A DNA stretch of 64,000 bases, from positions 223,765 to 287,764 of the forward strand of contig JAKBJL010000001.1 in the NCBI GenBank assembly GCA_021836035.1. The letters are read 5' to 3'. The notes under the pieces were generated by a model, which was not told the DNA's origin, made no database searches, and saw nothing but the letters and a program-made list of their open reading frames with translations. Origin of the DNA: a bacterium (GTDB taxonomy: Bacteria > Patescibacteriota > Microgenomatia > JAMCZE01). This document shows positions 8,908 through 49,701 of the stretch, one piece after another; within the stretch, counting starts at the first letter, position 1, and each line of letters begins with the position of its first letter. Both the position numbers and the translations under genes were made by a program.

Positions 8908-9120
8908 CTTCCACTCTTTTCATTTTACTCCCCGCCCGGGGAATGGTAAAATTACAACCGCAACTTGGAAATATAATAAAAGTTAATATTCCCCTGCCTG
9001 CCCGCCCTGGTCCCAAGCTTGTCGAGGGACGAAGGAGGGTAGCTAGAGGGATACTCAAAGAAAAAGAACATTTAAATTTTAATATTCCCCTGTAGCTCAG
9101 TTGGTAGAGCGCCTCGCTGT

Positions 9121-9619
9121 GGGGGTTCCCTGTCTGGTATACTCATATGTGTATGCCGGAGAAAAGAACATACGCTGATCGAGCAGAATACCTTAAGAAA
9201 GCAGCCACTGCCAGAAGGCGAAAGCTGAAACAGATGGTTGCAGAATATAAGGGCGGTAAATGTGGGCTCTGTGGTTATCGTCGATGTATTTGGGCATTAG
9301 ATTTGCACCACATCGACGAAAGTATGAAGGAATTCAGTATGTCTGTCAGAGGCCTAACAAGATCTTGGGAAAAGATTAAAGCCGAAGCAGATAAATGCAT
9401 TCTTATTTGTGCAAATTGCCACAGAGAAATTCACGCCGGCGTAACGCAGCTTCCCGTTGAAAAGCGGGAATGAAAATCAGGCTAATTCGGGGAAGACCCG
9501 GCTTTGCGGGTTAATCCCGAGCTAAATAAAATGTGTAGAGACTATATACCTGAGACCTAAACCTTAAAATGGCATGGTCAAGAGATAGTCCAAGCCTTTA
9601 AGTAATTAAAGGGCACTTG
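9121..9619 (+). mobile_element. group I self-splicing intron with embedded HNH homing-endonuclease ORF
   Basis: The 5' exon ends in U and the intron ends in G (cacttG|TAA). Core elements in canonical order: P-like AATTCGGGGAAG (9485-9496), Q-like AATCCCGAGC (9513-9522), R-like GTGTAGAGACTATA (9532-9546), S-like AAGAGATAGTCC (9580-9591). P4 and P7 pairing is possible. Confidence 0.7.
9147..9473 (+). CDS. HNH (His-Me finger) homing endonuclease, intron-encoded
   Basis: CGLCGYRRCIWALDLHHIDES...CANCHREIH carries the HH...N...H motif with flanking Cys pairs. It lies entirely inside the intron. Confidence 0.7.
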   Translation: MCMPEKRTYADRAEYLKKAATARRRKLKQMVAEYKGGKCGLCGYRRCIWALDLHHIDESMKEFSMSVRGLTRSWEKIKAEADKCILICANCHREIHAGVTQLPVEKRE

Positions 9620-9645
9620 TAACGAGGATGTCGTAGGTTCGAGTC

Positions 9646-11337
9646 CTACCGGGGGAGCACTAGTGGATTTGACGCCCATTCGTCCTCTAATTGGGCAGTC
9701 AATAAGCCCTGATTATCGGTTCCGAACATTGCCGAAGTTGATGGCACCTCTTCAACGACAGGTTTTAGAAAGCAATAGGGTTTTTGCAGATTGAGACGCA
9801 ACGTTTTGTCAGTAATAGTAAAGTCCGAACCTAAAATAATTAACATCTCCCGTTTCTGCATAAGGGTAGCGTTTGCGAACTTATAACGGCAGTGGACGGC
9901 AAAATCAAAAGCCTTTTCTGCATCATTCATCCATTCATCAACTTTTTTGCCTGCGTTTCCCATCCTTTGCTCAAGAGAAATTTTTTCGGCCATAAGCGTG
10001 TCTTTTTGTGATTTAAAATCAGTGTCCGAAAGTAACGAGCCGTCCGAATTTGCCGGGGAGATTTTTAGCTGAAGCAAGTTATCCAACTTTTTAAGACAAC
10101 CATTGTAAGCCTCTTGGATTGCCCCTATGGAAGCGTTGCGAACTTCAACCTCTTGATCGTTAAGTTTGTTTAAGTGCTTTATAGCCCAATCTTTGAAACG
10201 CTCGCTTATGCCCACCTGCGACATTAAAGCGTCGATCTGTTTTTCCAGATTTCCTACTTCTACTGACCCCTGAGTGCAATTGGGGTTTTTCCGTTTCGTG
10301 CAGTGGTAGTGCACATAATGCCGGATAAGAGGGTTATCCATTTCGCTTATTTTGGTATGGCATTGCTGACAGGTGTTATTATTGGTGCAGGTGAATTTAT
10401 AATTGCATTTAGAGCAAACGCATTGCCATCGTTCTTCCGCCGTCACCATCGCTCCACATTCGCCGCATTTCATTAATCCCGTAAAGGCAAACTCTCTGAA
10501 ATGAGGACTTGGCGATCCTTTTCTTCCCAAAATAATTTGTACCTTGTTAAATTGTTCTTTTGTAACCATAGGTTCATGCTGCCCCTGAAACCACTTGCCA
10601 CTACCGACCGGAAACTCGAATAAGCCGTAGTAAAACGGGTCTCGTAACATCCGGTAAATTTGGCTTCGTGCCATTGGTTTCCCACCGATAGATTTTCGTG
10701 TTGGTGAAGTGTAGCCCCATTCATTATTTAACATGTCTAAAATTTTGGGGGGCGTATATGCTCCGGTAAGCATTAATTCCCAGCATTGTTTTATAAGAGG
10801 GAATCTTACCGGATCGTTCATGATTTTCTTGCTGCCCTTTTCGGCGTACTTGTCGTTCATATATCCCGGCTTTGCTCCGGAGGGGAGATATCCTTTCTCG
10901 GCTTTCGTTTTAAGGCCCTCTTTGACGTTTTCTCCTTTGTGGTCGTTTTCAAATTTGGCTTGCATCATAAAGAAGCCAAGCATAAATTTATCCATTGGGT
11001 TATTTCTGAATGTTTGAGACGGGGTACAAACTTCAACCAGGTCGCCGCTATCCATCAAAGAAATAATTGTGGCCGCATCTTGGGGATTCCTTGAAAGACG
11101 GTCGGGGTGCCAAACCAAAATCCTGTCGATTTTGCCCTCTTTAATCATTGATACCAGTCTTCCAAATTCGGGCCTTCCCAAGTCTTTGGCTGATTTTGCT
11201 TCACTAAAGATATTGGTGATCTTGAAGCCTAGCTTCAGGGCAACAGCTTCCAGTTCCCTAGTTTGGGATTCTATAGAAAGCATCTGCCGATCTTCTGATT
11301 CGGAAGACTTTCTGCAATATGTTGCGTAGTTACTCAT
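9646..11337 (-). CDS. large serine recombinase (integrase)
   Basis: N-terminal resolvase catalytic domain (YCRKSSESEDRQ...SIESQ, ILVWHPDRLSRN), recombinase domain and Cys-rich zinc-ribbon region. The 3' end overlaps the tRNA 3' end by 12 nt. Confidence 0.85.
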   Translation of the reverse strand: MSNYATYCRKSSESEDRQMLSIESQTRELEAVALKLGFKITNIFSEAKSAKDLGRPEFGRLVSMIKEGKIDRILVWHPDRLSRNPQDAATIISLMDSGDLVEVCTPSQTFRNNPMDKFMLGFFMMQAKFENDHKGENVKEGLKTKAEKGYLPSGAKPGYMNDKYAEKGSKKIMNDPVRFPLIKQCWELMLTGAYTPPKILDMLNNEWGYTSPTRKSIGGKPMARSQIYRMLRDPFYYGLFEFPVGSGKWFQGQHEPMVTKEQFNKVQIILGRKGSPSPHFREFAFTGLMKCGECGAMVTAEERWQCVCSKCNYKFTCTNNNTCQQCHTKISEMDNPLIRHYVHYHCTKRKNPNCTQGSVEVGNLEKQIDALMSQVGISERFKDWAIKHLNKLNDQEVEVRNASIGAIQEAYNGCLKKLDNLLQLKISPANSDGSLLSDTDFKSQKDTLMAEKISLEQRMGNAGKKVDEWMNDAEKAFDFAVHCRYKFANATLMQKREMLIILGSDFTITDKTLRLNLQKPYCFLKPVVEEVPSTSAMFGTDNQGLLTAQLEDEWASNPLVLPR

Positions 11338-11446
11338 AACATTAAGCGCCCCCGCCGGTTGTGCTCAGAACGGTCAGGTTCTGTCCGACGGAGGCGCTAA
11401 AAAACCCGACCTATTTATCTGAGCACAATATTATTATTCGCTTATA

Positions 11447-11884
11447 TTAAAACTTTGTCAAATATCGGAAACCCTTGGACTTGTTTTGCTTTTTATACGA
11501 AAGTCGGTGGCAAAGTCGGCAAGCCATTATTTCGCTATTAGCGGGAATATATAAGAATCTAGCGCGACGGCCGCAGAGATTACAAAGAAACCAAAAGACA
11601 TATCCTTTTCCCAGATTCGACAGGCTGTAGGTAAGACCAACCTTGTTTTCAGCCGAAAGATCAACTTGTCCTTGTGCTTCCCGCCTAAGATTAATGGTAG
11701 TACCAAGCCTGACAAAATCCACCAACTGTTGTATATCCTTCTCGTTAGTCAAATTGAGGGTTGGCTTACCCTTTTCGGTCAAAAGTCGGTTAAATTTTCT
11801 TATATCCTCACTTACAACATTTGCCACATTTATTACCTGTGAGTTTTCAATTAGTGGCCGCTTACTCATATTAATCGGATACAT
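11447..11884 (-). CDS. hypothetical protein with C-terminal zinc-ribbon (possible small DNA-binding/excision factor)
   Basis: CNLCGRRARF...CRLCH. Confidence 0.3.
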   Translation of the reverse strand: MYPINMSKRPLIENSQVINVANVVSEDIRKFNRLLTEKGKPTLNLTNEKDIQQLVDFVRLGTTINLRREAQGQVDLSAENKVGLTYSLSNLGKGYVFWFLCNLCGRRARFLYIPANSEIMACRLCHRLSYKKQNKSKGFRYLTKF

Positions 11885-11914
11885 ATAAAAAACCTAAATC
11901 ACTAACAAACATTA

Positions 11915-13300
11915 CTAATCATTAAGTTCCATCTGCTCCATGTGTGTTTCTTCTTCTTTAATATTTTCTGTTACCCCACCATCTAACTCACTATAGTTTT
12001 GTGGTGAAGATATAGTGAGTGGCACGGTGGGGTAAATAAGAATCTTTCGTTTATCCAGCTTGTCAGCTTCGGAATAGATTAAGCCTGCCGTTTCTAGCAT
12101 GGGAATTATCTGCTGACGTAGTTGCCAATCAGGGATAAAACGACCATAAACACGGTAGTGCTCCTGGGAAATTTCTTGTCGGGTCAATCCGGTTTTCTCT
12201 CCATCAGTCAACTCACTATTCTTTTTATTGTAGGCTGGGGTAATCACGTCATAGAAAAAATTAAACACATATGGTGGTAGGTTCAGCTCTTGGCTCTCGG
12301 CTATTTGATCCCAAACAGCAAACGCATCGTTAATGTCCGTTTCGTTGGCGACTATTCCTTGCTCTTCCCGGTCCCTGAACCACAAATTAAGTAGGGCAAA
12401 AATCTTAACAAGATTAATCACCCGGCTGATGTCCCTTTGGTGTCTGGGTTTAAGCATCTTTACCCTTTCCATGAATTTGCTGATTACCAAATTTTCAGCG
12501 GGGATACGCACGTTCTGAATCTTTTCCTGTCTGATGGCTCTAATCCTATCAATCAAAAGTTTTCGTTCTGGATTGTTAATCAAGGCAAGCCGGTACGCAT
12601 CAGGGTTAACCTCTTTTTTAATCTTTTCCAACACCGCCTGACGAATTTTTTCTTGGTTTATTTCTGGAGAAAGTAATAAAAATCTCGTCGCTTCTTGTTC
12701 GTCAATCCTCAATCCTGCGGTGCAAAACACTACAACCGGATAACCAATCAAGAGTATATTTTTTGTTCGCAAACCAGCCTTCTGCGATTTGTCAGTTATT
12801 TTAAGGTGAATTTCCTTTTTATCGTGGGAAAGAATAGGCCGTAAATGCTGAAGTAGTAAGTCATGGGGTTGATCCAGAAAGATAATTATTTTCCTGGAGA
12901 GATCGACAACATAGCCTTTTCTCTTTTCGTCAAAGACACCATAATCATGGAAGAAGGCGGTGGGGCTACAATAGCCGACTTCAATAATATCCTCTTGGGG
13001 AAACAGTTTGGCTACTTCGGTAGGGATGAATGATTTGCCGGTAGACGATGGGGCATTGAAACTGATGTTTAATTGGCTGTCACCAGTGTAGGCTGACAGT
13101 TCAGTTAAAAAAGTAAGGAGTTTATTGATCTCGTCTTTTTTGATGGTCTGGCCTAAGACAGAAACCAAATCGTCCACACAAAGGGGCTTAATATTGGAAA
13201 CGTCGACAAAGGTTGACTCTTCCACCATTTCTTTTTCCGGTTCGATTGTCAACGAATCGACTATTTCTTCTGCTTGTTTAACAATTGCCTCGTCGTTCAT
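11915..13300 (-). CDS. P-loop NTPase, putative replication helicase/primase-associated protein of the element
   Basis: Walker A NAPSSTGKSF. The ATG (MNDEAIVKQ) overlaps the upstream stop as ATGA. The track ORF is extended artificially to 13453. Confidence 0.5.
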   Translation of the reverse strand: MNDEAIVKQAEEIVDSLTIEPEKEMVEESTFVDVSNIKPLCVDDLVSVLGQTIKKDEINKLLTFLTELSAYTGDSQLNISFNAPSSTGKSFIPTEVAKLFPQEDIIEVGYCSPTAFFHDYGVFDEKRKGYVVDLSRKIIIFLDQPHDLLLQHLRPILSHDKKEIHLKITDKSQKAGLRTKNILLIGYPVVVFCTAGLRIDEQEATRFLLLSPEINQEKIRQAVLEKIKKEVNPDAYRLALINNPERKLLIDRIRAIRQEKIQNVRIPAENLVISKFMERVKMLKPRHQRDISRVINLVKIFALLNLWFRDREEQGIVANETDINDAFAVWDQIAESQELNLPPYVFNFFYDVITPAYNKKNSELTDGEKTGLTRQEISQEHYRVYGRFIPDWQLRQQIIPMLETAGLIYSEADKLDKRKILIYPTVPLTISSPQNYSELDGGVTENIKEEETHMEQMELND

Positions 13301-13914
13301 AGTAAATATTTCATTGCTTCGGTAAAACTTAACTCTTTTGTCTTTTCTATAAAATTGATCGAGTCTCCGTGTGCTCCACACCCAAAACAATGATAAGTGT
13401 TTGTATCTTCGTATATAACAAACGATGGCGTCTTTTCCTCGTGCAGTGGGCAAAGCCCTGTTAGTCTTCGGCCAATTCGTCTCAATTTGCCTTCATAAAG
13501 CCTTTCTAGGGGCACTTGGCGAGCTTGTTGAACCTCAAAATAGCCAAAACGATTTAATTTATTCGAAAGTTGACGCGGTAGTGGTTTCTCGCTAACTTTT
13601 CGCCAAATTTCAGTCCAATAACGCAACCATTTTCTAATCATTAGATACTCTTCCGCATGGTAGGTTGGAAGAATTTTTAATACACTTCTCTCAACCGATT
13701 CTCTGGCAGAATTTTCGACGGCGATGGCCATTTGCTCTTGAATCAATTTCTTTGTCTCGTTGGCTAGTTCAAGCAGCTCCTTTATTTTCTCTATACTGAC
13801 AATTTTTAAGCCGTCCTCAAATCCCGTAATGTCCGGTAAAGTTGACGGTGGATAAACAAAATGCCGTAACTGTTTGCCTAGTTTAATATGGTCAAATTTA
13901 TTTTGATTTTGCAT
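13297..13914 (-). CDS. CHC2 zinc-finger (primase-type) protein
   Basis: CPLHEEKTPSFVIYEDTNTYHCFGCGAHGD closely mirrors the DnaG zinc finger at 3406..5217. Confidence 0.6.
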   Translation of the reverse strand: MQNQNKFDHIKLGKQLRHFVYPPSTLPDITGFEDGLKIVSIEKIKELLELANETKKLIQEQMAIAVENSARESVERSVLKILPTYHAEEYLMIRKWLRYWTEIWRKVSEKPLPRQLSNKLNRFGYFEVQQARQVPLERLYEGKLRRIGRRLTGLCPLHEEKTPSFVIYEDTNTYHCFGCGAHGDSINFIEKTKELSFTEAMKYLL

Positions 13915-14098
13915 ATTTTTTGTCTAGTTCTTTTTGCCAATTCTTGGGAATTGGCTGGTAAATTAACTTAAACAGTCGTAAAAGTGCGTTCGCCTTTTCA
14001 TAAGCCTCGCTGTCCGACAGGTTTTCATTGAACTGCGCTTTATAAATGTCTTTGAACTCGTTGACGGTGCTATGGCTTAACATATTAGGTTCCGCCAT
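13898..14098 (-). CDS. small hypothetical protein
   Basis: 66-aa ORF in the leftward element operon. Confidence 0.3.
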   Translation of the reverse strand: MAEPNMLSHSTVNEFKDIYKAQFNENLSDSEAYEKANALLRLFKLIYQPIPKNWQKELDKKYAKSK

Positions 14099-14330
14099 GT
14101 AGCCTCGTCCGAAGTTCGTTTATCGCCTCTATCAAATCACGGCTAGCTATGCGGTTTGAACGATTCCAGTGGCTTGAAATTATCTCTGGGGCAAGGTTTT
14201 TGGGATCATCGAAGACAAAATGAACAAATTTTCCTGTGCCTGGTTCCAGGCGTATAAGTTTTAGCCCCGAAGCGAGCAAACAGGCACTTATATAGAAGTC
14301 TTTGGACTTGTAAACTGTTACATTTTCCAT
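14085..14330 (-). CDS. small hypothetical protein
   Basis: 81-aa ORF overlapping its neighbour by 14 nt. Confidence 0.3.
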   Translation of the reverse strand: MENVTVYKSKDFYISACLLASGLKLIRLEPGTGKFVHFVFDDPKNLAPEIISSHWNRSNRIASRDLIEAINELRTRLHGGT

Positions 14331-14385
14331 AATGCGACTTTAGAAGGCACGCAGGGGGGTTATCAATAGTAGTAGTGGGGAGATG

Positions 14386-15243
14386 TTAGCTAGAACTTGG
14401 GGAGTTGGAAGGTAGGATTTGGGGAGATGTTGGCTTCAGGATTGCAGAATTATTTACAAAAATCCCAAAACCTTTTTTCTGAATAGGGATCAACGCTACT
14501 CCTAACACTGGATGCTTTTCAATTTCTCTCTGGATTTGCTTATAGGTATCCTCCAACCTGTCACTAACTTTAGTTAGTCTATTTCTATTTTTTTGCTGTT
14601 CATAAGTTGTCACACTAGAGTCTTCCCTTAATTCATAAAATTGTTCTTTTGGCACGATGGAATTTATGTTTTTTATCATCAAATCGACGGTTTTTCTTTT
14701 CACTTCTCCTTCAAACTTGAGGTTTTGACCTAGAAAATAAAGATCACCGGTCTGTAATACAAATTGAGGTGAAGTGTTACTGTACCAACGTGTAAATTCG
14801 ACTAATTTCTGTTTATTAATTAGAACAGAATATTGCCCCGCCTCAACTGGCCCCCAATTTTCTCTACTATTTCGCCATTCGTAATAAAAATGCGCGACTG
14901 TCTGATCGTTTGGCAACTTTAAGAAGTTTAAATACCCTTTGTCCCTGGCGATCGTAGTCAGGAAATCTTTTCCGTTTGCACTATAACTTCCAGATATGGC
15001 GTTACCCCATCTTGTAAACCAACGATTAGGCATCAATGCTTCTATCACGCCTTGTGCTAAGAGCTCTTGAGGCACGCGGTCATAACTATAACCGTAAGAG
15101 GTTGGGATTTCTTTTATAGAGGGGTAAGTGAATGTTCTATTGGCCGTTTTTGCAATGTTAACAACTGACCAATATTCGGCTGGTGGGAGCGCATCGTAAA
15201 TATACGAACAAAGAGTCACGCAATCGTTGATTAAACCATTCAT
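14386..15243 (-). CDS. hypothetical protein (element-encoded)
   Basis: 285-aa intact ORF with no recognised motif. Confidence 0.35.
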   Translation of the reverse strand: MNGLINDCVTLCSYIYDALPPAEYWSVVNIAKTANRTFTYPSIKEIPTSYGYSYDRVPQELLAQGVIEALMPNRWFTRWGNAISGSYSANGKDFLTTIARDKGYLNFLKLPNDQTVAHFYYEWRNSRENWGPVEAGQYSVLINKQKLVEFTRWYSNTSPQFVLQTGDLYFLGQNLKFEGEVKRKTVDLMIKNINSIVPKEQFYELREDSSVTTYEQQKNRNRLTKVSDRLEDTYKQIQREIEKHPVLGVALIPIQKKGFGIFVNNSAILKPTSPQILPSNSPSSS

Positions 15244-15276
15244 ATTACATTTTCATTTGTAGTAACGGGAAAAATC

Positions 15277-15840
15277 CTAGTTCCCAGTTTGCACAACCTG
15301 ATTCTGTCCAATTACAGCAGTTTGCGCATTTAAATTTAAACTTAGAGTTGGTTGTCGCATAGACTTCAAAGCAAAAAGGGAAGTTTGGAATTGTTTGTTG
15401 GCTCTTTCTAACTCCTTATTAAACATTTCTAATAATCTGATCCCAGAATCGCTGATGAAGCCTTTGGAAAGAACATTATTAATTTTTTGTTGGGTTTGGA
15501 GTACTAAAACAAAATTAAGCACGACTATTTCTGCGCGAGCATTCTCGCTGGGGGTTTGGCATTGGTATTCTGTGCGAAATTTCCGAAGCAAATCGACGGC
15601 AAATGTTTTATAACAATCTTCAACAGAAAAGGATAAAAGCGTTCCGTTATCAAACTCAAATAATGTCATTGCCTTAAAAGTGCTATCTTCGGGGCGTGCT
15701 TGATGTTCTCCACTGCAGTTTGAAAGCTCCTTGTCCGCTTGCCTCAAAACGCAGTCGGGGTCTATCGCTGTCTTACACGAAGCTAGAGATTTTCTGATCT
15801 CTTCAAGAGTTTTTACTGGTGCAACTGCCTTATCCTCCAT
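15277..15840 (-). CDS. hypothetical protein (element-encoded)
   Basis: 187-aa intact ORF. Confidence 0.35.
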   Translation of the reverse strand: MEDKAVAPVKTLEEIRKSLASCKTAIDPDCVLRQADKELSNCSGEHQARPEDSTFKAMTLFEFDNGTLLSFSVEDCYKTFAVDLLRKFRTEYQCQTPSENARAEIVVLNFVLVLQTQQKINNVLSKGFISDSGIRLLEMFNKELERANKQFQTSLFALKSMRQPTLSLNLNAQTAVIGQNQVVQTGN

Positions 15841-15871
15841 AGCCGCATTTTACTACGATTTCCCCCCTTCG

Positions 15872-16102
15872 CTAGAGGCCCATAAACAACTCCGAGAGGC
15901 TAATCTTCATTTTTCTGCAAATGCTAATTAAACGACTCAAAGTAACATTTCTTTCCCCTCTTTCTATAAACCCCATATAACTTCTATCAACTCCCGCTTC
16001 AAAGGCTAGATCTTCTTGTGTCATGTCTCTCTCATCTCTGAGCTGTTTTATTCTTTGCCCCAATCTTTTGTGGGTGACCGAAATAGCTTCCATAACACCC
16101 AC
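15872..16102 (-). CDS. XRE-family helix-turn-helix transcriptional regulator (repressor or R-M controller-like)
   Basis: LRDERDMTQEDLAFEAGVDRSYMGFIERGERNVTLSRLISICRKM is an HTH_3 signature. Divergent to the methyltransferase operon. Confidence 0.7.
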   Translation of the reverse strand: MGVMEAISVTHKRLGQRIKQLRDERDMTQEDLAFEAGVDRSYMGFIERGERNVTLSRLISICRKMKISLSELFMGL

Positions 16103-16198
16103 AACTTATTCCAAAAGGGACTACTAGACCAGCTCCTGTATGTAGCATTATGGCCAGTACTCGTGCTATATTGGGACAAGTAGTAGTCAGTATAAAAT

Positions 16199-17308
16199 AT
16201 GGCAAATAGTAATCTTGCCAACGCAAAAAGGACAAAAAACGACGAGTTTTATACCCAGTACAGTGATATTCAAAAAGAGATTGAAGCGTATCTGGACCGA
16301 AACCCTGATGTGTTCCGAAGTAAGGTGGTATATTGCAACTGCGACGACCCGTTTGAAAGTAACTTCTTTCGTTACTTCGTGCTTAATTTCAAAAAACTTG
16401 GGCTGAAACAACTAATCACTACTAGCTATAAACCTTCACCTATAGCTAATACACAGCTGCAGTTATTTGGTGACGATAAAACACTCACTAAATCAAAAGG
16501 TCGTCCCAAAATAAACGCCAATAAATTCATTATTAACGAAGTGCATGATATTGACGGTAACGGCGAATTTAATTTGAAGGATATTGCCAAACAGTTAAGG
16601 GCAAACAAACACAATGAATGGACTCCACTAGAAGGTGATGGCGATTTTCGTAGCGATGAGTCTATAAATCTGCTGAAACAATCTGACATCGTGGTAACTA
16701 ATCCGCCGTTCAGTCTGTTTCGTGAGTATATAAAACAACTTGTTGATTTTAATAAAAAGTTTTTGATCATAGGCAACATGAACGCGATTACCTATATAGA
16801 GGTATTTCCATTACTTAAAGAGAATATGGTTTGGTTAGGTAATAATTACAAGGTCAATGCTGGGGCAATGTTTTTTGAGATACCAGAAAAGATTGCTAAT
16901 TTAGAGCAAGTTCGTGAAATTAAGACAAGCGAAAGTGGTAAGAAAGTTTATATTACACGCGTGCAAGGCATTCGTTGGTTCACTAATCTTGACCATGGCC
17001 GTCGTCACCAGCCACTACAACTAATGACGGAGGCAGAAATAATAAAGTTTTCAACGAAAAAACCGTTTGAGAAATATGATAACTATGATGCGATTGAGAT
17101 CTCGTTAGTTAAAAACATTCCAAGCGACTATAAAGGGGTAATGGGCGTACCGGTTAGTTTTTTAGACAGTTATAATCCTGATCAATTTGAAATTTTAGGG
17201 TCGAATCGTGGTGTTGATCAAGATCCAAATAAAATTTACGGCAGAGGGTCATACCTGAATGGAAAAGAAATTTATAAGAGATTATTTATAAGACATAGGA
17301 AAAAATAA
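16199..17308 (+). CDS. DNA amino-methyltransferase (N6-adenine/N4-cytosine class, NPPF motif IV)
   Basis: [11 protein letters not shown] catalytic motif IV. Possible AdoMet motif NCDDPFES upstream. Confidence 0.55.
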
Positions 17309-17309
17309 T

Positions 17310-18479
17310 ATGGAAACAACATTTAAAACCGACATTACTGTCAAAGACATTTGCGAGGGTTTTGTCTATAACGAGTTAGAAGGTAAAGGATTGTTTGGTC
17401 TGGCTGGCAAACTTACTATTCAGCCGGAATATCAGCGCAACTATATCTATGCTTCTGACGGAGGCAAAAAAGAAATGGCCGTAATCGAATCGGTTCTTAA
17501 GAGATACCCAATAGGATTGATCTATTTCAATAAAGTAAGCGACAATAATTTAGAAGTTTTGGACGGACAACAACGCATCACAAGCCTCGGACGGTTCTTG
17601 ACTGACAAATTTGCCATTAAAGATGAAAACGGCATGGAGCAATATTTTAGTGGTATGGCAAAAGATAAACAGGATAAAATTTTAAAAACTCCTTTGCTTA
17701 TTTACGAATGCGAAGGAAAAGAAAGCGAGATAAAAGAATGGTTTAAAACAATAAATATTGCCGGTGTCCCACTTAGTGATCAAGAGTTGCTTAATGCAGT
17801 ATATTCAGGACCGTTCGTAACGCTTTGTAAGGAGGAATTTAGTAATAGTCAAAACGCTAACATCCAAAAATGGGGTGCTTACGTATCTGGTAGCGTAAAC
17901 CGGCAGGAGTTTTTGGAACGCGCTTTGGATTGGGTAAGCAAAGGCAACATTGGCGATTATATGAGCCGTCACCGCTACGACAAAAGTATCACCGAGCTAA
18001 AAACATATTTTAATAGTGTGATCGATTGGATTTCCAGCGTGTTTACCGATGTGGAGAGCGAAATGCGAGGACTGGAATGGGGGCGACTATATGAACAGTA
18101 CCATTCTAAAACTTATGATCCTGCCAAAGTGTCGGCAGAAGTGCAAAAGCTCTATGGCGATCCGTATATCAAAAGTCGTAAGGGTGTTTTTGAGTTTGTC
18201 TTAGGCGGTTCAGTCGACACGAAACTATTAGAAGTCCGAGTTTTTGATGAAGCAACAAAAAAAGCTGTTTACACAACACAGACTGCTGATGCTAAAACCA
18301 AAGGGAAGTCAAACTGTCCGCTTTGTGCTATTGGACATGACGCCAATAAGAGTAAGATTTGGAATTTTGACGAGATGGACGCAGATCACGTAGCAGCATG
18401 GAGTAAAGGTGGTGCAACTTCAGCTAAGAATTGTCAGATGCTTTGCAGGACACATAATCGAGCAAAAGGAAATCGATAA
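17310..18479 (+). CDS. DUF262 (ParB-like NTPase, DGQQR motif) + C-terminal HNH/DUF1524 nuclease, GmrSD-like
   Basis: [13 protein letters not shown] in the N-domain. [12 protein letters not shown]...[15 protein letters not shown] is an HNH motif in the C-domain. The start lies 2 nt after the methyltransferase stop. Confidence 0.7.
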
Positions 18480-18496
18480 TGTAGTATGTTTTTAAT

Positions 18497-18835
18497 ATGG
18501 ACGATCAACAAAAAATTATTGAGGAACTAAAAAGCGAAATCGTCTCTTTAAAGGTTCGGTTACGTCGGGTTGAAAGTTTTATTGAGTCAATGCCAAATCC
18601 AGATGAACATCTTCAAAGATTGGATGACAAAGGCGTAGATGTACTTCTTGAAGCAGCTCAAGAGATCGTTTCCCAGTATGATAGAGCCAGTGCCAGTTTA
18701 CTCCAAAGAAAGTTATCTATTGGTTACGCTAGAGCTGCAGCCCTTTTGGATTTACTGGAAGATAAGGGAATTGTTGGGCCAGCCAAAGGCTCCGAACCAA
18801 GAAATGTGCTGGTCAAAAACGAACCAAAATCTTAA
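18497..18835 (+). CDS. stand-alone FtsK-gamma (winged-helix, KOPS-binding type) domain protein with N-terminal coiled coil
   Basis: ASASLLQRKLSIGYARAAALLDLLEDKGIVGP matches the FtsK gamma domain consensus (LQRRLRIGYNRAARLIEQME..GIV). Confidence 0.65.
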   Translation: MDDQQKIIEELKSEIVSLKVRLRRVESFIESMPNPDEHLQRLDDKGVDVLLEAAQEIVSQYDRASASLLQRKLSIGYARAAALLDLLEDKGIVGPAKGSEPRNVLVKNEPKS

Positions 18836-19469
18836 TTCTGAAGTTGATCTTATTCAAAAACCAGTTACCCATAAACCAGCTAAATCTTACTACTCCTAAA
18901 CCAATAAAAGCGCCGCCCATAAAGACCGCATTACGAAGTTCGTTAGGAAAGGGTACTATTTTTTGAATCTCCCGCATAACAATATCTATTGGCTCGTTGC
19001 TAGACCAGTTGGGATAATCCTTATAGACCTGAAAGAGCCAAATGCCAATTACTACTAAAACGCCAGACCAAAATAACTCTTGGAAAAACCTCGGCCAGGT
19101 GCGAAACCAACGAGCGACAAAAGAATTGTGAATTACACCAGCAATTTGTTTCTTTTTAATAACGATTTTCGGAGTAGCCCATTTAGCCGTGTCGAAATTT
19201 TTAGCCTCTTTCCAATAGTATCGCGTTCCTCGTCTGAAGCCAAATTGTCTTATTCTAACAGGCCATAATGCCAGCCAAGAAAAACAGAAAGCTAGGAGAA
19301 GACCAAGACCCCAATTTTGAGACAATACAGTAAAGAATAGAAAAATAGCCCCAGTGAAGATTAAGAGCCAGTCCCGTTTCCCGTTTTTTCTTTGGATTAA
19401 ATAGTCAAAACTCCGCAATAACTTCGGAGCATCTCCACTTCCATACCGCCAGTTAGCTTTAATCATCAT
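18813..19469 (-). CDS. polytopic membrane protein, hypothetical
   Basis: Several hydrophobic helices. Confidence 0.4.
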   Translation of the reverse strand: MMIKANWRYGSGDAPKLLRSFDYLIQRKNGKRDWLLIFTGAIFLFFTVLSQNWGLGLLLAFCFSWLALWPVRIRQFGFRRGTRYYWKEAKNFDTAKWATPKIVIKKKQIAGVIHNSFVARWFRTWPRFFQELFWSGVLVVIGIWLFQVYKDYPNWSSNEPIDIVMREIQKIVPFPNELRNAVFMGGAFIGLGVVRFSWFMGNWFLNKINFRIKILVRF

Positions 19470-19532
19470 CTTAAATATACATCTAAAAGTATGGAAATTC
19501 GTATATTTGGCTCATCCTGATAAAATAGCCTT

Positions 19533-20030
19533 ATGAAATTAAGCAGATTGGGGTATTTTTTAGATTTAAACAATGCCAATCAGCAGGGATTTGGACCCGC
19601 TTTTCGTTTAGTGGTAGACGATAAACAAATCGACTACTTTATAATCCCAGCAGCTTTAGAATACAGTCTGAAGAATAACGGAATCCTTCCAATTTTTAAC
19701 TGTAGCTGTGGTGTAGTAGGCTGTGGCGGAGCATATGTAAAGGTTGCCCATAAAAAGGACCGGGTTGTGTGGGAAAAGTTATATTCCGGAACAAGTTGCG
19801 GTGAGGAAATTGACGAGAAGGATGACGAGGTGTCGCACATGAATTTCCGGACTTACGCTTTAGTGGCAGAAGACAAATCCGAACTAAATCTACCCTTGGA
19901 GTTCAGTGCTAAAAATTACAAGGCGGTTATTATGAAGATATTGTCTTCTCCGGAATTTAAGCAGTATGAAGAACAAGGTTATATCCATGATAAGAATAGC
20001 TTTGCTAAAAAAGACTTCTTTATGCCTTAG
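19533..20030 (+). CDS. hypothetical protein
   Basis: 165-aa ORF containing a CSCGVVGCGG stretch. Confidence 0.35.
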   Translation: MKLSRLGYFLDLNNANQQGFGPAFRLVVDDKQIDYFIIPAALEYSLKNNGILPIFNCSCGVVGCGGAYVKVAHKKDRVVWEKLYSGTSCGEEIDEKDDEVSHMNFRTYALVAEDKSELNLPLEFSAKNYKAVIMKILSSPEFKQYEEQGYIHDKNSFAKKDFFMP

Positions 20031-20051
20031 GGCGTTATAATAAAGCAACCG

Positions 20052-20138
20052 TTGCGTTGCTGATTACTGGTTACGGCTGTCGTTGAACCAGTATTGTCGA
20101 AAGACTAGGCAACGCAAAAAATTGTTTGTGACACAAAC
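20052..20138. repeat. nested inverted repeats plus a perfect 15-nt palindrome GTTTGTGACACAAAC (20124-20138)
   Basis: Outer inverted repeat TTGCGTTGC (20052-20060) / GCAACGCAA (20109-20117). Inner inverted repeat TACTGGTT / AACCAGTA. The palindrome lies ~90 nt upstream of the 20227 gene. Confidence 0.5.
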
Positions 20139-20226
20139 TCCGAAAAGGATCGCGATAAGACATGAGGCTATTTATATTTAGTTGTATGATTATAGATAGC
20201 AACGGTAGTCCATAAATTGTTGTTAT

Positions 20227-22002
20227 ATGAAAGCAACCGAAAAAGCTAAGGGCCCCGCAATAACTTGGGCGATTTCACTTTTTATCTTCATAGCAAATAT
20301 TGTTGTTGGGACAGAGTTCTTTAGAACTACAATTGACCGATCTGCCTATGGAAAATCACAACTGGCAATACTAGTCGCCCTAGTGTCTTTTATTGTCGGT
20401 TGTCTATCTTTTGCTTTAGGCTTTATTATTTACGTTGGGTTCAGATTGGAAAGAAAAAAAGGCGCGCATCTACGGACAAGACTTGTTAGACAATTTATAA
20501 AGTTAATTCTTGTATCTTTGTTTCTCCCCATAGATGTCATTGTTCAAGCTGTCAGATATAAACCTGCAAAATCACTCAGTCCGGGTACGAAATATCGAGT
20601 TAGAGGGCTACTAATTAAGCTACTTCCTGTTCTCTTCTCTCTGGTTTTATTGTTTCCAATTTGGTTATCAGCTTACTTAGCTACCGGCATAATAGGAGTG
20701 ACAATAACTGAAGAAAAACTGGGCTACAAAAGTTCTGATTACCCTATCGTAGGAACTGGCTCTATGTACCCCACTTTTCCCAAAAGCGATAAAAAGAGCC
20801 CAATCGAGCAATACAAAGATATTGTCGGCTCCTATGCGGCGCTTCCATATCCTAATGGAGTAGTTCTTTTCGGAAAGCGATATCTTGGTCATGAAATTCA
20901 GCGAGGCGACATTGTGACTTTTCGTAACGAAGCGACACTGGAACTAACTAAAAAGCTGTATGGTGAACCTGGTGGATTTTTGAAAAGAGTGATTGCGCTG
21001 CCAGGGGATACAATAGAAATTAAAGGTGGCGTTGTGATTTTAAATGGCCAACCATTAAAAGAACCGTACACATTCAAACCCCAATCTACCTTCGAAGAAA
21101 GTTTTCTGAAGGAGTGCAAACAAATTACCGTTCCGCCAGGAAAGTTTTTTGCTATGGGCGACAACAGAAAAGGTAGTGGTGACTCAAGAGAAATTGGTTT
21201 TGTCGATCTGAAAGATATTGACCATATGATTCCTATGGATAGTCAGAAAGGAATATTAGACAAGAGCTGGCGGGATACTTCCAAAGACTTAAATGAGGAA
21301 TCAAAAATCAAGTTAGATAAAACCCGCTATTTAGACTTACTTAATGAAAAACGGAAGGAAGCAAATCTTAGGCCTCTTAAGTACCAGCAGTTGCTAGAGC
21401 AATCCGCGACTAAGAGGGGAGAAATAATGCTGAAATATAATGATTTTTCCTGGGAAGCTACCCAAAGTGGAAAAACCATGCTATGGGCGATGAATAGTGT
21501 TAGATATTCAAATATTGTTTATGGCGAAGCCCCTGTCCTTGGCTACTACGAAGCCGATGAGCTTATTGAAAATCAATTCCAATTTCCAAAAAGCAAGGAA
21601 TTTCTCTTGAATAAAGATTACCAGGAAGTCGGAATATCTGAAGTTGCTGGAGAAATCAATGGTTGTCCAACTCAAGTTATCGTCGAACACTTTGCTGGTT
21701 ACGTACCCCCCAATTATAAACAGTCGGACATTGACAGTTGGAAAAAGGCTCAAAGTAATTTGCGCGACATTCAACCAAACTGGGAAAGATTAAAAACATA
21801 CGAATCTTTTTACAAAGACAATAAAGATGACGTTGATAGAATAACCTCATTAATCGGACAAAGACTTAATAATATAACGGTAATTATTTCTCGAATGGAA
21901 GCAAATCAATGGTTAACTGCTCAAGAAAGAGGATTGATTGATGCAGACAAGGCACTGTCAGACGAAATTAATCAACTAGCTGACAAACTGAATAAAAAAT
22001 AA
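20227..22002 (+). CDS. fusion protein: N-terminal polytopic membrane domain + signal peptidase I (S26) + C-terminal CAP/SCP-like domain
   Basis: SPase boxes GTGSMYPTF (B), GDIVTF (C), RVIALPGDTIEI (D), FAMGDNRKGSGDSRE (E). The C-terminal region (LRPLKY...YSNIVYGEAP...CPTQVIVEHFAGY) resembles the CAP/YkwD family. Confidence 0.6.
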   Translation: MKATEKAKGPAITWAISLFIFIANIVVGTEFFRTTIDRSAYGKSQLAILVALVSFIVGCLSFALGFIIYVGFRLERKKGAHLRTRLVRQFIKLILVSLFLPIDVIVQAVRYKPAKSLSPGTKYRVRGLLIKLLPVLFSLVLLFPIWLSAYLATGIIGVTITEEKLGYKSSDYPIVGTGSMYPTFPKSDKKSPIEQYKDIVGSYAALPYPNGVVLFGKRYLGHEIQRGDIVTFRNEATLELTKKLYGEPGGFLKRVIALPGDTIEIKGGVVILNGQPLKEPYTFKPQSTFEESFLKECKQITVPPGKFFAMGDNRKGSGDSREIGFVDLKDIDHMIPMDSQKGILDKSWRDTSKDLNEESKIKLDKTRYLDLLNEKRKEANLRPLKYQQLLEQSATKRGEIMLKYNDFSWEATQSGKTMLWAMNSVRYSNIVYGEAPVLGYYEADELIENQFQFPKSKEFLLNKDYQEVGISEVAGEINGCPTQVIVEHFAGYVPPNYKQSDIDSWKKAQSNLRDIQPNWERLKTYESFYKDNKDDVDRITSLIGQRLNNITVIISRMEANQWLTAQERGLIDADKALSDEINQLADKLNKK

Positions 22003-22009
22003 GTTAATT

Positions 22010-22840
22010 ATGAAAATATATTTTGACGAGTCCGAGGATCAAGCAAAAACTCTATTCTTAGTTGGTGCTATTTTTATTTATGGTGAGGAAAATATTAACT
22101 TACTTCGTGAAGCTATTAACAAACTTAAAAATGAAAATTCATTTACCGATGGGAAAGGACAACCGCGCGAAATAAAGTACAACAAAATACTCACGGATAA
22201 AGACATTTTAGTTGCGAAAAAAGCAATCGATTTATTTTTTGCGAACAAAAATACATACTTTCGTTGCTGTGTTGTACCGTGGCGGGAGCAAGATTTGTTC
22301 AAGTTTGGTAGGAAATATCAACCTCTCAAATTAAAGAAGGCAATTTTGTATACAAATACGACAAAAAAACTTATAAAGTTAGGTATAGATGGTTTCGTTA
22401 ATGCGGTACTTATTTACGATGATCTTGTCCGATGTAAGGGAGATAAATTTGAGGAAATAATTGAAACCAGCTTCGGTCGGACAGCCCTTTCCTCTGATGG
22501 AAACCGGTCACCGATAATCAAGAACATTGCCTCAGCAAAGTCTAATTTAGATATAAACAACAGTGTTCAGCTTACAGACCTAATACTGGGCTGTGTTTTA
22601 AATCAAAATCGACCTGCGAGTAAGCAAAAAAATAAGGTGCGTGACTATCTTATTAAAAAGCTCGGGGTTAATGATTTATCAAGATCAACGTGGATTAATA
22701 AATCTTGTCCTGCAGACGAAAGAGGAATCGGTCCAAAGTTTTACATCCACTATCTAAACATTGATGAGCTAACCGTAAATAAAAAATCTAGAAAAAAGAT
22801 AAGGATGAAGAGGAAAAACAATTTGAACCGCAGTCGGTAA
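22010..22840 (+). CDS. hypothetical protein, possibly DUF3800-like
   Basis: An N-terminal MKIYFDESED pattern is typical of DUF3800. Basic C-terminus. Confidence 0.3.
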   Translation: MKIYFDESEDQAKTLFLVGAIFIYGEENINLLREAINKLKNENSFTDGKGQPREIKYNKILTDKDILVAKKAIDLFFANKNTYFRCCVVPWREQDLFKFGRKYQPLKLKKAILYTNTTKKLIKLGIDGFVNAVLIYDDLVRCKGDKFEEIIETSFGRTALSSDGNRSPIIKNIASAKSNLDINNSVQLTDLILGCVLNQNRPASKQKNKVRDYLIKKLGVNDLSRSTWINKSCPADERGIGPKFYIHYLNIDELTVNKKSRKKIRMKRKNNLNRSR

Positions 22841-23068
22841 CTCTATTAGCGATAGCTGACCAAGTCAACATCATCGAGCTACTACTTACGGTTCTATGCT
22901 TTTATTATAGCATTTGAAATTATAAAGAGATAGAAATTCGGTAAATAATGAGAAAGAAGAACCTCAGCTGGGTTAGAACCATCTAAATTTGAGCGTAAAA
23001 GTTCCGAATCGAGTCTACCGCTCGGAGCCAGTTGGCACTTAATATACCCAAACTAAGTGTAAATAAAT

Positions 23069-23671
23069 ATGTCTATATTTAAGAAAAAAATTGATTTTGG
23101 TCAGTTTGTAGCGAATTTAATATCTTTTCAGTTGGATTTCATAGAAAATAATTTCGACAAGATGGCTGTTTTGGCAGATGAGTTTAAGGTACTGACAGAA
23201 AGTGACAAAAAAGATTTATATGAAAAACTACATACGCTTTCCGTTGCAGACATTTTGCTTGAATGTCACATAAACCTTAGTAATAAGGTATCACCGCAGG
23301 AGATAAATAACTTTATTGCCGTGATGTATAGGAGATGTCTTGTTGAATATAAACACATGCAAGAAAAGGAGGCCATTGATAAGGCAAAAAGAGTTCTTGA
23401 TTTAATAGACTGTATGGAAGAAGCGAGAAAAGATCCGGATCAGACAAGGGAAAGAGCGAGTAAAAAAGGTTACGAAATAAATGGAGTAAGTGAGCATGAC
23501 GAACAAAAATACTTACTTTGTAATGGTTTCAGTGACTATTTTGCGGGTAAAGATATAAAGTCTGAAAATTGGGAAGGTAAGCATTTTGCAGCCTTCAAAA
23601 TGGCTAAAGCATTAGTAAAAGCAGACATCGTCAGAAATATGCTTAAGGAAACCACCGTTGTTTGGAGTTAG
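23069..23671 (+). CDS. hypothetical protein
   Basis: 200-aa intact AT-rich ORF. Confidence 0.35.
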   Translation: MSIFKKKIDFGQFVANLISFQLDFIENNFDKMAVLADEFKVLTESDKKDLYEKLHTLSVADILLECHINLSNKVSPQEINNFIAVMYRRCLVEYKHMQEKEAIDKAKRVLDLIDCMEEARKDPDQTRERASKKGYEINGVSEHDEQKYLLCNGFSDYFAGKDIKSENWEGKHFAAFKMAKALVKADIVRNMLKETTVVWS

Positions 23672-23680
23672 AAAAGAAGT

Positions 23681-24178
23681 ATGTCTATTCACCCGAATTT
23701 GGAGTCGATGCTTCAAGAATCACTACCCGAAATGCTTTTAGTTGCAAAATATTGCATTGAGTTTAATAAAGATACAAAGATATGGCCTGCCCCAGGTTGT
23801 TATGGTTATCCCGCAGCGGTTCTATTGCTATCTATTGCTGATAGTATCGGTTCGTATGTTGAGAAAGGTAAAGTAGAGAATCATTTTAAAGTATTTAATA
23901 ATGCTGATTATTATGGCTTGTATCTATCAGATGAAGAGCTTAGGGTATTAATTGATAATTATCGAAATTTATTATCACATAATACTGTCATGGCAACTAA
24001 TGCGGGTCTAAATATTGGATTGCCTTCAGATAATGTTTTAGAAAAGAAAGATGATAAGTATTGGTTAAACTTAGTCGCTCTTTATAATATTAGCGTTAAG
24101 GCTGTGAATTCGTTTCTTGATAATCCCAGTGTATTAAGCATCAATCTGACAATATTAAATATTTACAAGAAGCATTAA
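23681..24178 (+). CDS. hypothetical protein
   Basis: 165-aa intact AT-rich ORF. Confidence 0.35.
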   Translation: MSIHPNLESMLQESLPEMLLVAKYCIEFNKDTKIWPAPGCYGYPAAVLLLSIADSIGSYVEKGKVENHFKVFNNADYYGLYLSDEELRVLIDNYRNLLSHNTVMATNAGLNIGLPSDNVLEKKDDKYWLNLVALYNISVKAVNSFLDNPSVLSINLTILNIYKKH

Positions 24179-24529
24179 ACAAACTCCTTTATTGTTATAT
24201 TGATTTGTTTCACTTTCTCTATTTCCTCTCTGATTTGAGCAACTAGCCTAAAGTCAGAGAAAGCCTTTATACTACAAGCTAATTGCGTAGCTGTATTAGA
24301 GTTACGATTCTCGAGCCGAATATTTTGAAGCTAATTTTCATTCTCCAGGCTTATATCCCTCACCCGGACGGCTATTTAATTTCATTCTACACACCGACCA
24401 AGTAAAAAGTTCTAAAATCATCCCAATAAGCGAGCAAAAAGTTTTTTATTATTACCCCATGTCTCTTCCTTTACTATAACAATAAGACTTCTCTCTTGTT
24501 ATGCTAAACTGATTTAAGGCAAGGAGTCT

Positions 24530-49177: not shown

Positions 49178-49696
49178 ATGCCCAACCTGCCCGGATTCCC
49201 ATCCCGAACCGTTCCCCACAAGCTGGTGGTCGGCTGGTTCTCCTTTACCTGCTGCGAAGACAGCACCATTCTTTTCACCGAACTTTTAAATGAGCATTAT
49301 GACGAATGGAAAAAAATAATTGAATTCCGCAGCGCTAAAGTCCTCAAAAGCAAAAACGATATGACGGGCTTGGATGTCGCTTTTATTGAAGGAGCGATTT
49401 CTTCGGAAAAACAAGCCGCGGAAGTAAAAAAAATCCGGGAAAATTCCCGTTACGTAGTTGCCATCGGCTCCTGCGCCTGTACCGGTAAACCTTCGGCCGC
49501 GCGTAACGATTTTGTGGGGCCGGAACTGAACGAGAAGATCCGTTGGTATCTTTCGAATTTTAATTATAACCAGAAAGTGCAAAAGCTGGATGAAGTCATT
49601 AAGGTGGATGACCAGGTAAACGGTTGCCCGATGAATACGGAAATATTTCTTCTTACCCTGCAAAAATATCTCAAACTTTTTAATATTAACGAATAA
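49178..49696 (+). CDS. [NiFe]-hydrogenase small subunit (group 3-type, short)
   Basis: NuoB/hydrogenase small-subunit Cys pattern FTCCED...GSCACTG. Confidence 0.75.
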   Translation: MPNLPGFPSRTVPHKLVVGWFSFTCCEDSTILFTELLNEHYDEWKKIIEFRSAKVLKSKNDMTGLDVAFIEGAISSEKQAAEVKKIRENSRYVVAIGSCACTGKPSAARNDFVGPELNEKIRWYLSNFNYNQKVQKLDEVIKVDDQVNGCPMNTEIFLLTLQKYLKLFNINE

Positions 49697-49701
49697 AATT
49701 T

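Follow-up and report, generated by a model that had tools for sequence, protein, structure and literature searches.

A long-form type I signal peptidase, in which the catalytic domain is preceded by a membrane region and followed by a divergent CAP-like domain and a helical bundle, appears to be carried on a tRNA-Asn-integrated island of a bacterium of the candidate phyla radiation (CPR). The gene lies at 20227-22002 (+ strand) of a 64,000-nucleotide (nt) stretch of contig JAKBJL010000001.1 (GenBank assembly GCA_021836035.1; Patescibacteriota, Microgenomatia), which we call the window and to whose positions all coordinates refer unless another locus is named; loci in other genomes and metagenomes carry L numbers of our own. 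We consider it probable that the gene encodes an intact enzyme of the long form found in Microgenomates, imported as a xenolog on the island and most likely serving as an additional general signal peptidase. Signal peptidase I is essential, well studied and an antibiotic target; bacterial CAP domains, to our knowledge, have almost no assigned function. Our literature searches found no description of a signal peptidase-CAP fusion.

Architecture and signal peptidase domain

The open reading frame (ORF) is complete, with an ATG start and 591 codons, and its product is built of four consecutive parts: a membrane region, an S26 domain, a CAP-like domain and a C-terminal three-helix bundle. An earlier, sequence-only reading of this stretch had proposed a tripartite protein composed of membrane, signal peptidase I and CAP parts, and the ORF and its three proposed parts were borne out by the hydrophobic segments, by the catalytic boxes, by the family models PF10502 and TIGR02227, by Foldseek structure comparisons and by profile evidence. 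The S26 signal peptidase I catalytic domain (aa 166-340; 20722-21246, +) is delimited by family models, catalytic boxes and structure matches. Pfam Peptidase_S26 (PF10502) aligns with aa 178-331 at E 2.8e-27 and 96.2 bits (cutoff 22.9), and the NCBIfam model TIGR02227 (sigpep_I_bact) scores 100.2 bits (cutoff 47). Alignment places the catalytic Ser179 in the box B motif GTGSMYPT (20761-20763, +), the general-base Lys253, followed by Arg254, in box D (20983-20985, +), and box E, GDNRKGSGDSR, at aa 311-321 (+). Ser179, Lys253 and the stretch G311-R321 are invariant across the sets of 52, 86 and 60 homologs or locus sequences that were aligned, as is Arg254 in the sets of 52 and 86, and the closest solved structures to the domain are the peptidases of B. 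anthracis and E. faecalis and SpsB of S. aureus. By every sequence criterion examined the protein belongs to the S26A type I signal peptidases, and the ORF product is predicted to be an intact and catalytically competent enzyme of that class.

An AlphaFold2 (AF2) model of the full protein, computed from an alignment of 52 homologs, has a mean predicted local distance difference test score (pLDDT) of 80.7 and a predicted template modeling score (pTM) of 0.54. It contains helices 2-28 and 45-75, a short helical hairpin (82-110) and a long helix (121-165), followed C-terminal to this anchor by the beta-rich peptidase domain, an alpha-beta-alpha unit at aa ~365-492 and a three-helix bundle at 499-590. 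Hydrophobicity and the AF2 model together define the membrane region as aa 1-165 (20227-20721, +), in which the hairpin carries an invariant Pro101 and the long helix serves as the anchor. Four hydrophobic segments precede the catalytic domain, all within aa 9-160; rather than the four to five transmembrane helices counted in the sequence-only reading, the charge pattern favors three spans and a re-entrant hairpin. The loops at 73-85 and 111-127, which flank the hydrophobic stretch 86-110, are strongly basic (4.2 and 5.4 Lys plus Arg residues on family average); both would therefore be cytoplasmic by the positive-inside rule, so that the stretch between them would form a re-entrant hairpin. 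The topology suggested by this pattern is N-in, three spans plus the hairpin, and C-out, and it appears to be the sole arrangement that would place the catalytic domain outside the membrane.

The CAP-like domain and the C-terminal bundle

The divergent CAP/YkwD-like alpha-beta-alpha domain (aa 341-498; 21247-21720, +) was recognized by its fold and by profile searches. The Pfam check proposed for the fusion came out above the cutoff for Peptidase_S26 but not for CAP, as PF00188 scores 17.0 bits on the full-length protein and 19.4 bits on a C-terminal fragment and does not reach its gathering cutoff of 21.1; the YkwD model TIGR02909 gives 31.6 bits against a cutoff of 171. Sub-threshold or weak PF00188 matches recur in 15 of 19 family members, the best at E 5.4e-5. 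A Foldseek comparison of the AF2 model with the Protein Data Bank (PDB) returned as its top match the Borrelia CAP protein BB0689 (4d53_A; E 5.1e-6, probability 1.0, template modeling score 0.78 normalized to the target), followed by SAV1118 (4h0a), a B. anthracis SCP protein (4ifa), GAPR-1, PR-1 and snake CRISPs, and CAP proteins alternate with signal peptidases in this list of matches. Phage SCP proteins are among the structure matches in BFVD.

A profile of the C-terminal 254 aa was also searched exhaustively against 1.84 billion representative proteins. In the strong matches the module stands almost always at the C-terminus of S26 proteins of 430-610 aa, and both of the two shorter forms that were examined contain the S26 domain; the number of N-terminal helices thus appears to vary within the family while the S26-CAP fusion stays constant. 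The weaker matches (E 1e-12 to 7e-20) span the CAP portion only and are bona fide Pfam CAP proteins (47-312 bits), an outcome that disposes of the doubt, raised with the sequence-only reading, that the C-terminal region might find no CAP-family profile. The CAP-like domain is colinear with stand-alone YkwD-like proteins at 25-30% identity, with the common motifs FS.EAT.SG and GE. The same module's profile found no CAP match among PDB sequences, where it hit only an acetyltransferase by chance (E 0.16), and an AF2 model of the C-terminal part by itself was poor (pLDDT 70, below 50 in the CAP core), its fold search giving nothing below E 0.3. Fold and profile evidence together establish homology with the CAP superfamily at the level of sequence and model, for what is a divergent member. 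The first canonical cavity histidine is replaced by Trp/Phe (FSHEAT to FSWEAT; W409) and the second by Ser/Thr (SPKHK to FPKSK; S456), and the cavity glutamates Glu434 and Glu445 are kept, so that the domain departs from the His-Glu-Glu-His tetrad. Invariant residues of the domain are Glu434 and Glu445 as well as His488, Tyr492 and P494-P495.

The assignment of some 250 C-terminal residues to a CAP domain holds for the CAP-like part (~341-498) but not for aa 499-590, which form a three-helix bundle instead. The bundle (aa 499-591; 21721-21999, +) is modeled with pLDDT >90, and no specific structural or family match to it was found in our searches. A weak match to CHASE3 was taken as generic helical similarity and that identity was set aside. 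DalA was likewise considered as a functional analogue and kept only as a lead, the NCBIfam match being weak (E 0.015); the DalA paper shows peptidoglycan binding and never mentions a CAP fold (PMC10470522).

Conservation and two invariant cysteines

Mean pairwise identity within the family is 33% in the membrane region, 62% in the peptidase domain, 72% in the CAP-like domain and 54% in the bundle, a pattern that points to purifying selection being strongest on the CAP-like domain, tighter even than on the domain that holds the active site. The island copy departs from the family at 10 of 165 strongly conserved positions; since other members depart at 0-13 (median 4), it lies within the family range and is therefore taken to be intact, and it shows no specialized changes in catalytic or CAP residues. 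Two cysteines, Cys297 in the S26 domain (21115-21117, +) and Cys480 in the CAP-like domain (21664-21666, +), stand out in the family alignment. Both are invariant in 86/86 locus sequences and in 58/58 full-length representatives at 50% identity, and no other cysteine occurs beyond residue 166 in 55 of 60 family representatives. They probably form an interdomain disulfide that would fix the CAP-like domain onto the peptidase.

Distribution of the long form

The search for the fusion in other genomes, which the sequence-only reading had recommended, was productive. Across 5.8 billion proteins, 1075 homologs were returned, of which the best 120 are 555-619 aa long; most of these align over 90-100% of the query with ~50% identity, and for the remainder the aligned span is 77-85%, at up to 60% identity. 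Public annotation labels these fused proteins simply 'signal peptidase I', and the named homologs so annotated come from Patescibacteria and from Levy-, Davies-, Collier- and Shapirobacteria. In an alignment-based scan across GTDB species, each represented by one genome, at least 167 genomes had a relative; the 80 loci returned come from 80 different genomes, one locus each. The informative names among them are all Microgenomates: Woese-, Roizman-, Collier-, Shapiro-, Beckwith-, Davies-, Gottesman-, Levy-, Pace- and Amesbacteria. Single-protein pattern scans of the reference genomes and of IMG/VR had found none, whereas the alignment-based scans of both did, with two family-carrying contigs in IMG/VR.

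Elsewhere the homologs usually neighbor core genes, e.g. a tRNA synthetase with hrcA-grpE-dnaK-dnaJ, or infB-rpsO-pnp-RNase J...ftsK, and clustering of the flanking ORFs of 85 loci revealed no conserved partner, the commonest neighbor family occurring in 10/85. Given at least 167 species representatives and partner-less core-gene contexts, the long S26-CAP form is therefore best described, by its sequence distribution, as the ordinary signal peptidase I of Microgenomates and not as an element-specific enzyme. The architecture, which had been called unusual, is thus standard in this lineage. Members in mobile-looking contexts are a minority (L016, L087 and the two IMG/VR contigs). At L016 (3574-5079) a terminase-like gene and a serine recombinase flank the peptidase; at L087 a phage major head protein (10825-11994; E 1e-35) lies 3 kb from it. 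A diversity-generating retroelement with Avd and reverse transcriptase (L088, 9039-10823; E 1e-115) was also seen near a family member.

A proposed island at the 3' end of tRNA-Asn

The carriage of the gene on a mobile element, also proposed in the sequence-only reading, is upheld by its position in a recombinase-bearing, low-GC island at a tRNA-Asn gene. The island, proposed at 9660-24435 (~14.8 kb) from a GC step, the tRNA junction and assembly breaks, has a GC content of 0.392, and 0.37 at third codon positions (GC3), compared with 0.485 and 0.52 for the backbone; the low GC and GC3 run continuously from 14.3 to 24.4 kb. The GC of the peptidase gene lies 0.094 below that of its flanks (-0.094), whereas the same difference at 82 homolog loci is -0.002 +/- 0.033, placing this gene 2.8 standard deviations (SD) off. 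At the left end, a large serine recombinase of 563 aa (Resolvase, Recombinase and Zn-ribbon domain matches; 9646-11337, -) overlaps with its 3' end the 3' end of a tRNA-Asn(GUU) gene. The junction is exact, at 9659/9660, and in a Logan assembly made from the same sample there is a break precisely at the final base of the tRNA region, 9659. Further Logan breaks at 24435 and 24498, and breaks in an assembly from the European Nucleotide Archive (ENA) at 25342/25365, lie near the GC step at ~24.4 kb. A single Logan contig covers 17170-24435 unbroken. On these sequence grounds the peptidase gene is taken to be cargo of the island. The identical 591-aa product is encoded on seven contigs, drawn from three independent sources (NCBI, ENA and Logan assemblies), and its neighbors are always the same.

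The tRNA gene is split into exons at 9086-9120 and 9620-9657 (+), whose joining gives a canonical 74-nt tRNA. An ARAGORN scan of the window detected no tRNA, missing this one because it is interrupted by a 499-nt group I intron (9121-9619, +; Rfam RF00028, 59 bits at 9433-9612). The intron splits the gene between anticodon positions 35 and 36 and ends in G9619, and its guide, GCAGC at 9445-9449, base-pairs with GCUGU at the exon end. Within it lies a 108-aa ORF (9147-9473, +) whose CxxC...CxxC...H motifs make an HNH homing endonuclease its probable product; it is 78% identical to the ORF at the same place in L100/L101 (13849-14166). The splice is validated by comparison, since the intron-less tRNA-Asn of a metagenomic relative (L096) reads across the predicted junction and L100, from a Gottesmanbacteria relative, carries this intron at the identical site (~13.8-14.4 kb, 54.7 bits); L047 is also intron-less. 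A 2014 review of bacterial group I introns makes no mention of Asn (PMC3984707).

The same site is used repeatedly. The recombinase/tRNA-Asn junction recurs in L096, with a recombinase 43% identical to that of the window, and in L100 a resolvase adjoins the same intron-split tRNA-Asn. L047 (106-5873) is another tRNA-Asn island, a low-GC block that encodes a Fic/DOC protein and a large serine recombinase overlapping with its 3' end the 3' end of tRNA-Asn(GUU), and that host's own signal peptidase, of backbone GC, begins 89 bp past the tRNA. In the window, no second copy of the tRNA 3' end was found within 3 mismatches, nor any convincing flanking direct repeat; the 'GAGCA' found both at 9655-9659 and at 24432-24436 is not long enough to qualify as an attachment (att) repeat. 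A 20-nt direct repeat, TAAA[A/T][G/T]TTAATATTCCCCTG, occurs at 8977-8996 and 9073-9092, the second copy running into the tRNA-Asn gene as far as its seventh nt; the upstream copy resembles a duplicated promoter plus tRNA 5' end and could be an earlier recombination scar.

The other identifiable cargo covers restriction-modification, candidate defense, and replication or recombination. An EcoRI-like adenine methyltransferase gene (16199-17308, +; EcoRI family, 410 bits) is followed by one for a GmrSD_N plus HNH protein that matches a type II restriction enzyme (17310-18479, +; PADLOC REase_II, E 2.8e-81), and the two are predicted to constitute a complete type II restriction-modification pair. 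Next come a free-standing FtsK gamma (KOPS-binding) domain protein of 112 aa (18497-18835, +; domain match), the peptidase gene, and a DUF3800-like gene (22010-22840, +) that matches the PADLOC candidate defense family PDC-M04A and phrog_3732. The last starts 7 nt past the peptidase stop codon and is not a conserved partner of the family. Near the recombinase, a CHC2 zinc-finger primase-like protein (205 aa) and then a 461-512-aa protein of no known family are encoded at 11915-13914 (-), possibly as a replication module of the island, and a helix-turn-helix regulator gene is also present. The zinc-finger part of the primase-like protein matches DRT-associated DnaG-like models in PADLOC. Among the island proteins we found no phage structural, conjugation, type IV secretion system (T4SS) or relaxase genes, and none of the other island-encoded proteins carries an N-terminal signal-like hydrophobic segment; a single one of them is a membrane protein. 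No island genes accompany the family at its other loci. Full-length ftsK adjoins the native signal peptidase gene in L006, L015, L041 and L044.

Origin and role of the island copy

For the backbone sigma factor RpoD, relatives named Gottesmanbacteria or Microgenomates reach 83-89% identity, whereas the best relatives of the peptidase reach ~60% overall, or, in a Daviesbacteria fragment, 65% over the extracellular part, and Gottesmanbacteria copies are only 42-51% identical. Because close host relatives (RpoD 83-89%) thus lack this allele (peptidase at most ~65%), the island copy is most likely a laterally acquired xenolog in a Gottesmanbacteria-like host. In relatives the native gene can lie near dnaG-rpoD (L075) or directly beside tRNA-Asn (L047), and the second position would be a plausible, if speculative, route for capture by tRNA-Asn islands. 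Most of the recombinase/peptidase adjacency seen at other loci can be put down to this ability of the native gene to adjoin tRNA-Asn.

In the scheme that we favor, a large serine recombinase would have integrated the ~15-kb island at the tRNA-Asn 3' end with the peptidase gene as cargo. A three-span anchor with a re-entrant hairpin at the cytoplasmic face would put the catalytic, CAP-like and bundle domains outside the membrane, and the histidine-less CAP-like domain would be stapled to the catalytic domain by the Cys297-Cys480 disulfide. The enzyme would act as a general leader peptidase, cleaving off Sec signal peptides, and the CAP-plus-bundle module as an obligatory extracellular accessory, perhaps in substrate handling or envelope tethering; that the module is integral to the working of the enzyme is suggested because it is conserved, predicted to be extracellular and probably covalently attached. 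Several observations weigh against this scheme. The pTM of 0.54 leaves the relative placement of the domains uncertain, and the right end of the island is inferred solely from the GC step and the contig breaks. A search by exact matches to the proteins of the flanks, by the tRNA exon across metagenomes and among the closest relatives (RpoD 86-89%) recovered no empty attachment site (attB), all the sites seen being either occupied or rearranged, and ~39 kb of the window (7.5-46.5 kb) is non-syntenic with the closest relatives, a larger rearrangement that reaches past the island. The peptidase gene is, moreover, probably co-transcribed with the DUF3800-like candidate defense gene, which leaves room for an element-related role. 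Finally, no native second copy of the gene came up in searches by cluster accession or with a Gottesmanbacteria-type query, the genome having been inspected over the 64-kb window and the adjoining ~10 kb on the left side in the contig, out of ~0.6-1.2 Mb.

This last point bears on the alternative that we take most seriously, although we judge it clearly the less likely one, namely that the island gene replaced a lost native copy and is now the genome's only signal peptidase I, with a housekeeping role exercised from an island. The window holds no second S26 gene, the searches in the same assemblies yielded no native copy, none is present here at dnaG-rpoD or tRNA-Asn, unlike in L075 and L047, and the island is present on every one of the seven contigs with the flanks and is thus apparently fixed in the sampled populations. 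Against replacement, the inspected portion of the genome is small, Gottesmanbacteria relatives have native long peptidases, and the searches could easily have missed a copy less than 60% identical to the queries. A role dedicated to the element, in which the peptidase would process or secrete island proteins or remodel the surface for exclusion or defense, was raised in the sequence-only reading and now seems improbable. Its setting among defense-type cargo, the probable co-transcription with the PDC-M04A-like gene and the family members beside mobile-element genes (L016, L087) or on IMG/VR contigs all speak for it, but the processing of element-specific cargo finds no candidate substrate, as no other island protein has a signal peptide. 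In addition, the island genes never co-occur with the family elsewhere, the family sits in core contexts without a conserved partner, the catalytic and CAP residues of the island copy are unspecialized, and the recombinase adjacency at L047 is explained by a native gene beside tRNA-Asn.

That the gene is instead native, lying in a low-GC stretch beyond an island that ends before it, is more improbable still. As such a reading would allow, no right att site was identified, and the interval between SNase and lactamase_B is rearranged relative to close relatives; the composition is nevertheless continuous across the gene, the Logan contig is unbroken to 24435, accessory and defense genes of the same composition lie on both sides, the GC deviation from the family norm is 2.8 SD, and no homolog above ~60-65% identity turned up although close host relatives are in the databases. 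A fusion of two or three genes by sequencing or assembly error, a caveat attached for two genes to the sequence-only reading, can hardly be credited when the identical 591-aa product was assembled seven times from three sources, more than 1000 full-length homologs exist, of the same length and most with 90-100% coverage, and the C-terminal module nearly always follows an S26 domain. The reading that we prefer therefore remains an additional general signal peptidase, acquired with the island. Extending beyond it, the CAP-like domain and bundle could give the Microgenomates peptidase a second, lineage-defining extracellular function, with divergent alleles traded between lineages on tRNA-Asn islands alongside defense genes. 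We regard this proposal as unlikely, but it is a specific one: the second function may lie in the capture of pilin, S-layer or adhesion preproteins, in wall tethering, or in host-cell contact by episymbionts, and allele trading may be driven by an altered secretome or surface or by resistance to agents that target the native peptidase.

The wider neighborhood in the window

A tblastn search of the window for a second peptidase gave a sole weak match, at 49190-49429, which belongs to a NiFe-hydrogenase small subunit and was rejected; genes for the small and large NiFe-hydrogenase subunits lie at 49178-51003 (+) of this Gottesmanbacteria-like CPR genome. An FMN_bind/ApbE/NQR-like cluster occupies 35.9-38.7 kb. 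A co-assembled strain (ENA ERZ27233565; L090, 5960-7303) carries an extra gene, absent from the window, for a 447-aa RNase_T/GIY-YIG/UvrC_M protein; it is placed between a 109-aa gene and an FKBP gene (window ~30.8-31.4 kb) and represents a strain-level indel. In L097, among the closest relatives (RpoD 89%), lactamase_B directly follows SNase, and then comes the pyruvate:ferredoxin oxidoreductase block in the opposite order (window 46.5-56.6 kb).

Significance and comparison with known systems

The fusion offers a concrete handle on bacterial CAP-domain function and on protein export in the ultra-small, episymbiotic CPR bacteria, and the island copy indicates that even this core enzyme is exchanged horizontally among them, on tRNA-Asn serine-recombinase islands. 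Neither the fusion nor the island copy overturns any known principle. The island resembles other tRNA-targeting islands in that the recombinase abuts the tRNA 3' end, the cargo consists of foreign accessory and defense genes, and the same tRNA is used recurrently. It differs from the usual ones in employing a large serine recombinase in place of a tyrosine integrase, in having no duplicated tRNA 3' end, and in that its target tRNA is split by a group I intron.

Mobile carriage of a signal peptidase also has precedents. SipP is said, in studies attributed to Meijer in 1995 and Tjalsma in 1999, to be encoded on the Bacillus plasmids pTA1015/pTA1040. In our searches S26 homologs were found on 299 PLSDB plasmids (159 of them from Bacillus) and in 16 phage records, all via the S26 domain only. 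As in those cases, a general-type signal peptidase I gene appears here as accessory mobile cargo; the plasmid and phage lepB genes, however, encode short canonical enzymes that match aa ~146-337, whereas the present gene encodes the long CAP-fused form and rides on a serine-recombinase island integrated into the chromosome of a CPR bacterium, not on a plasmid or phage. To judge from the sequences compared, the carriage thus has precedent and this architecture does not. The conjugative peptidase TraF (TIGR02771 / PRK13884) shares with the island protein an S26-related peptidase encoded on mobile elements; it was rejected as an identity at 35.5 bits (cutoff 100.25), with no conjugation genes and an unrelated architecture. 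The streptococcal SipA/LepA pilus chaperones (4n31, 4k8w) likewise put an S26 fold to use in surface-protein biogenesis, but the structural match is insignificant (E 0.27-0.5) and catalytic residues are missing from the chaperones; in the present family Ser, Lys and box E are all invariant.

With the bacterial CAP proteins BB0689, SAV1118 and the B. anthracis SCP protein, the CAP-like domain has in common the alpha-beta-alpha fold and an extracytoplasmic location, the latter by prediction. It differs from bacterial CAP/YkwD proteins in lacking both histidines, in its sub-Pfam score, in being always fused behind a peptidase, and in an invariant Cys that is likely bonded to the peptidase domain. 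The closest known enzymes are LepB and SipS (MEROPS S26A), with which the island protein shares the Ser/Lys dyad, boxes B-E, a membrane anchor and, by prediction, an extracytoplasmic active site. Compared with these enzymes, it is about twice the usual length, with an extra polytopic N-terminal region that includes a Pro-containing hairpin and with ~250 extra C-terminal residues, within which the CAP-like domain is more conserved than the catalytic domain itself.

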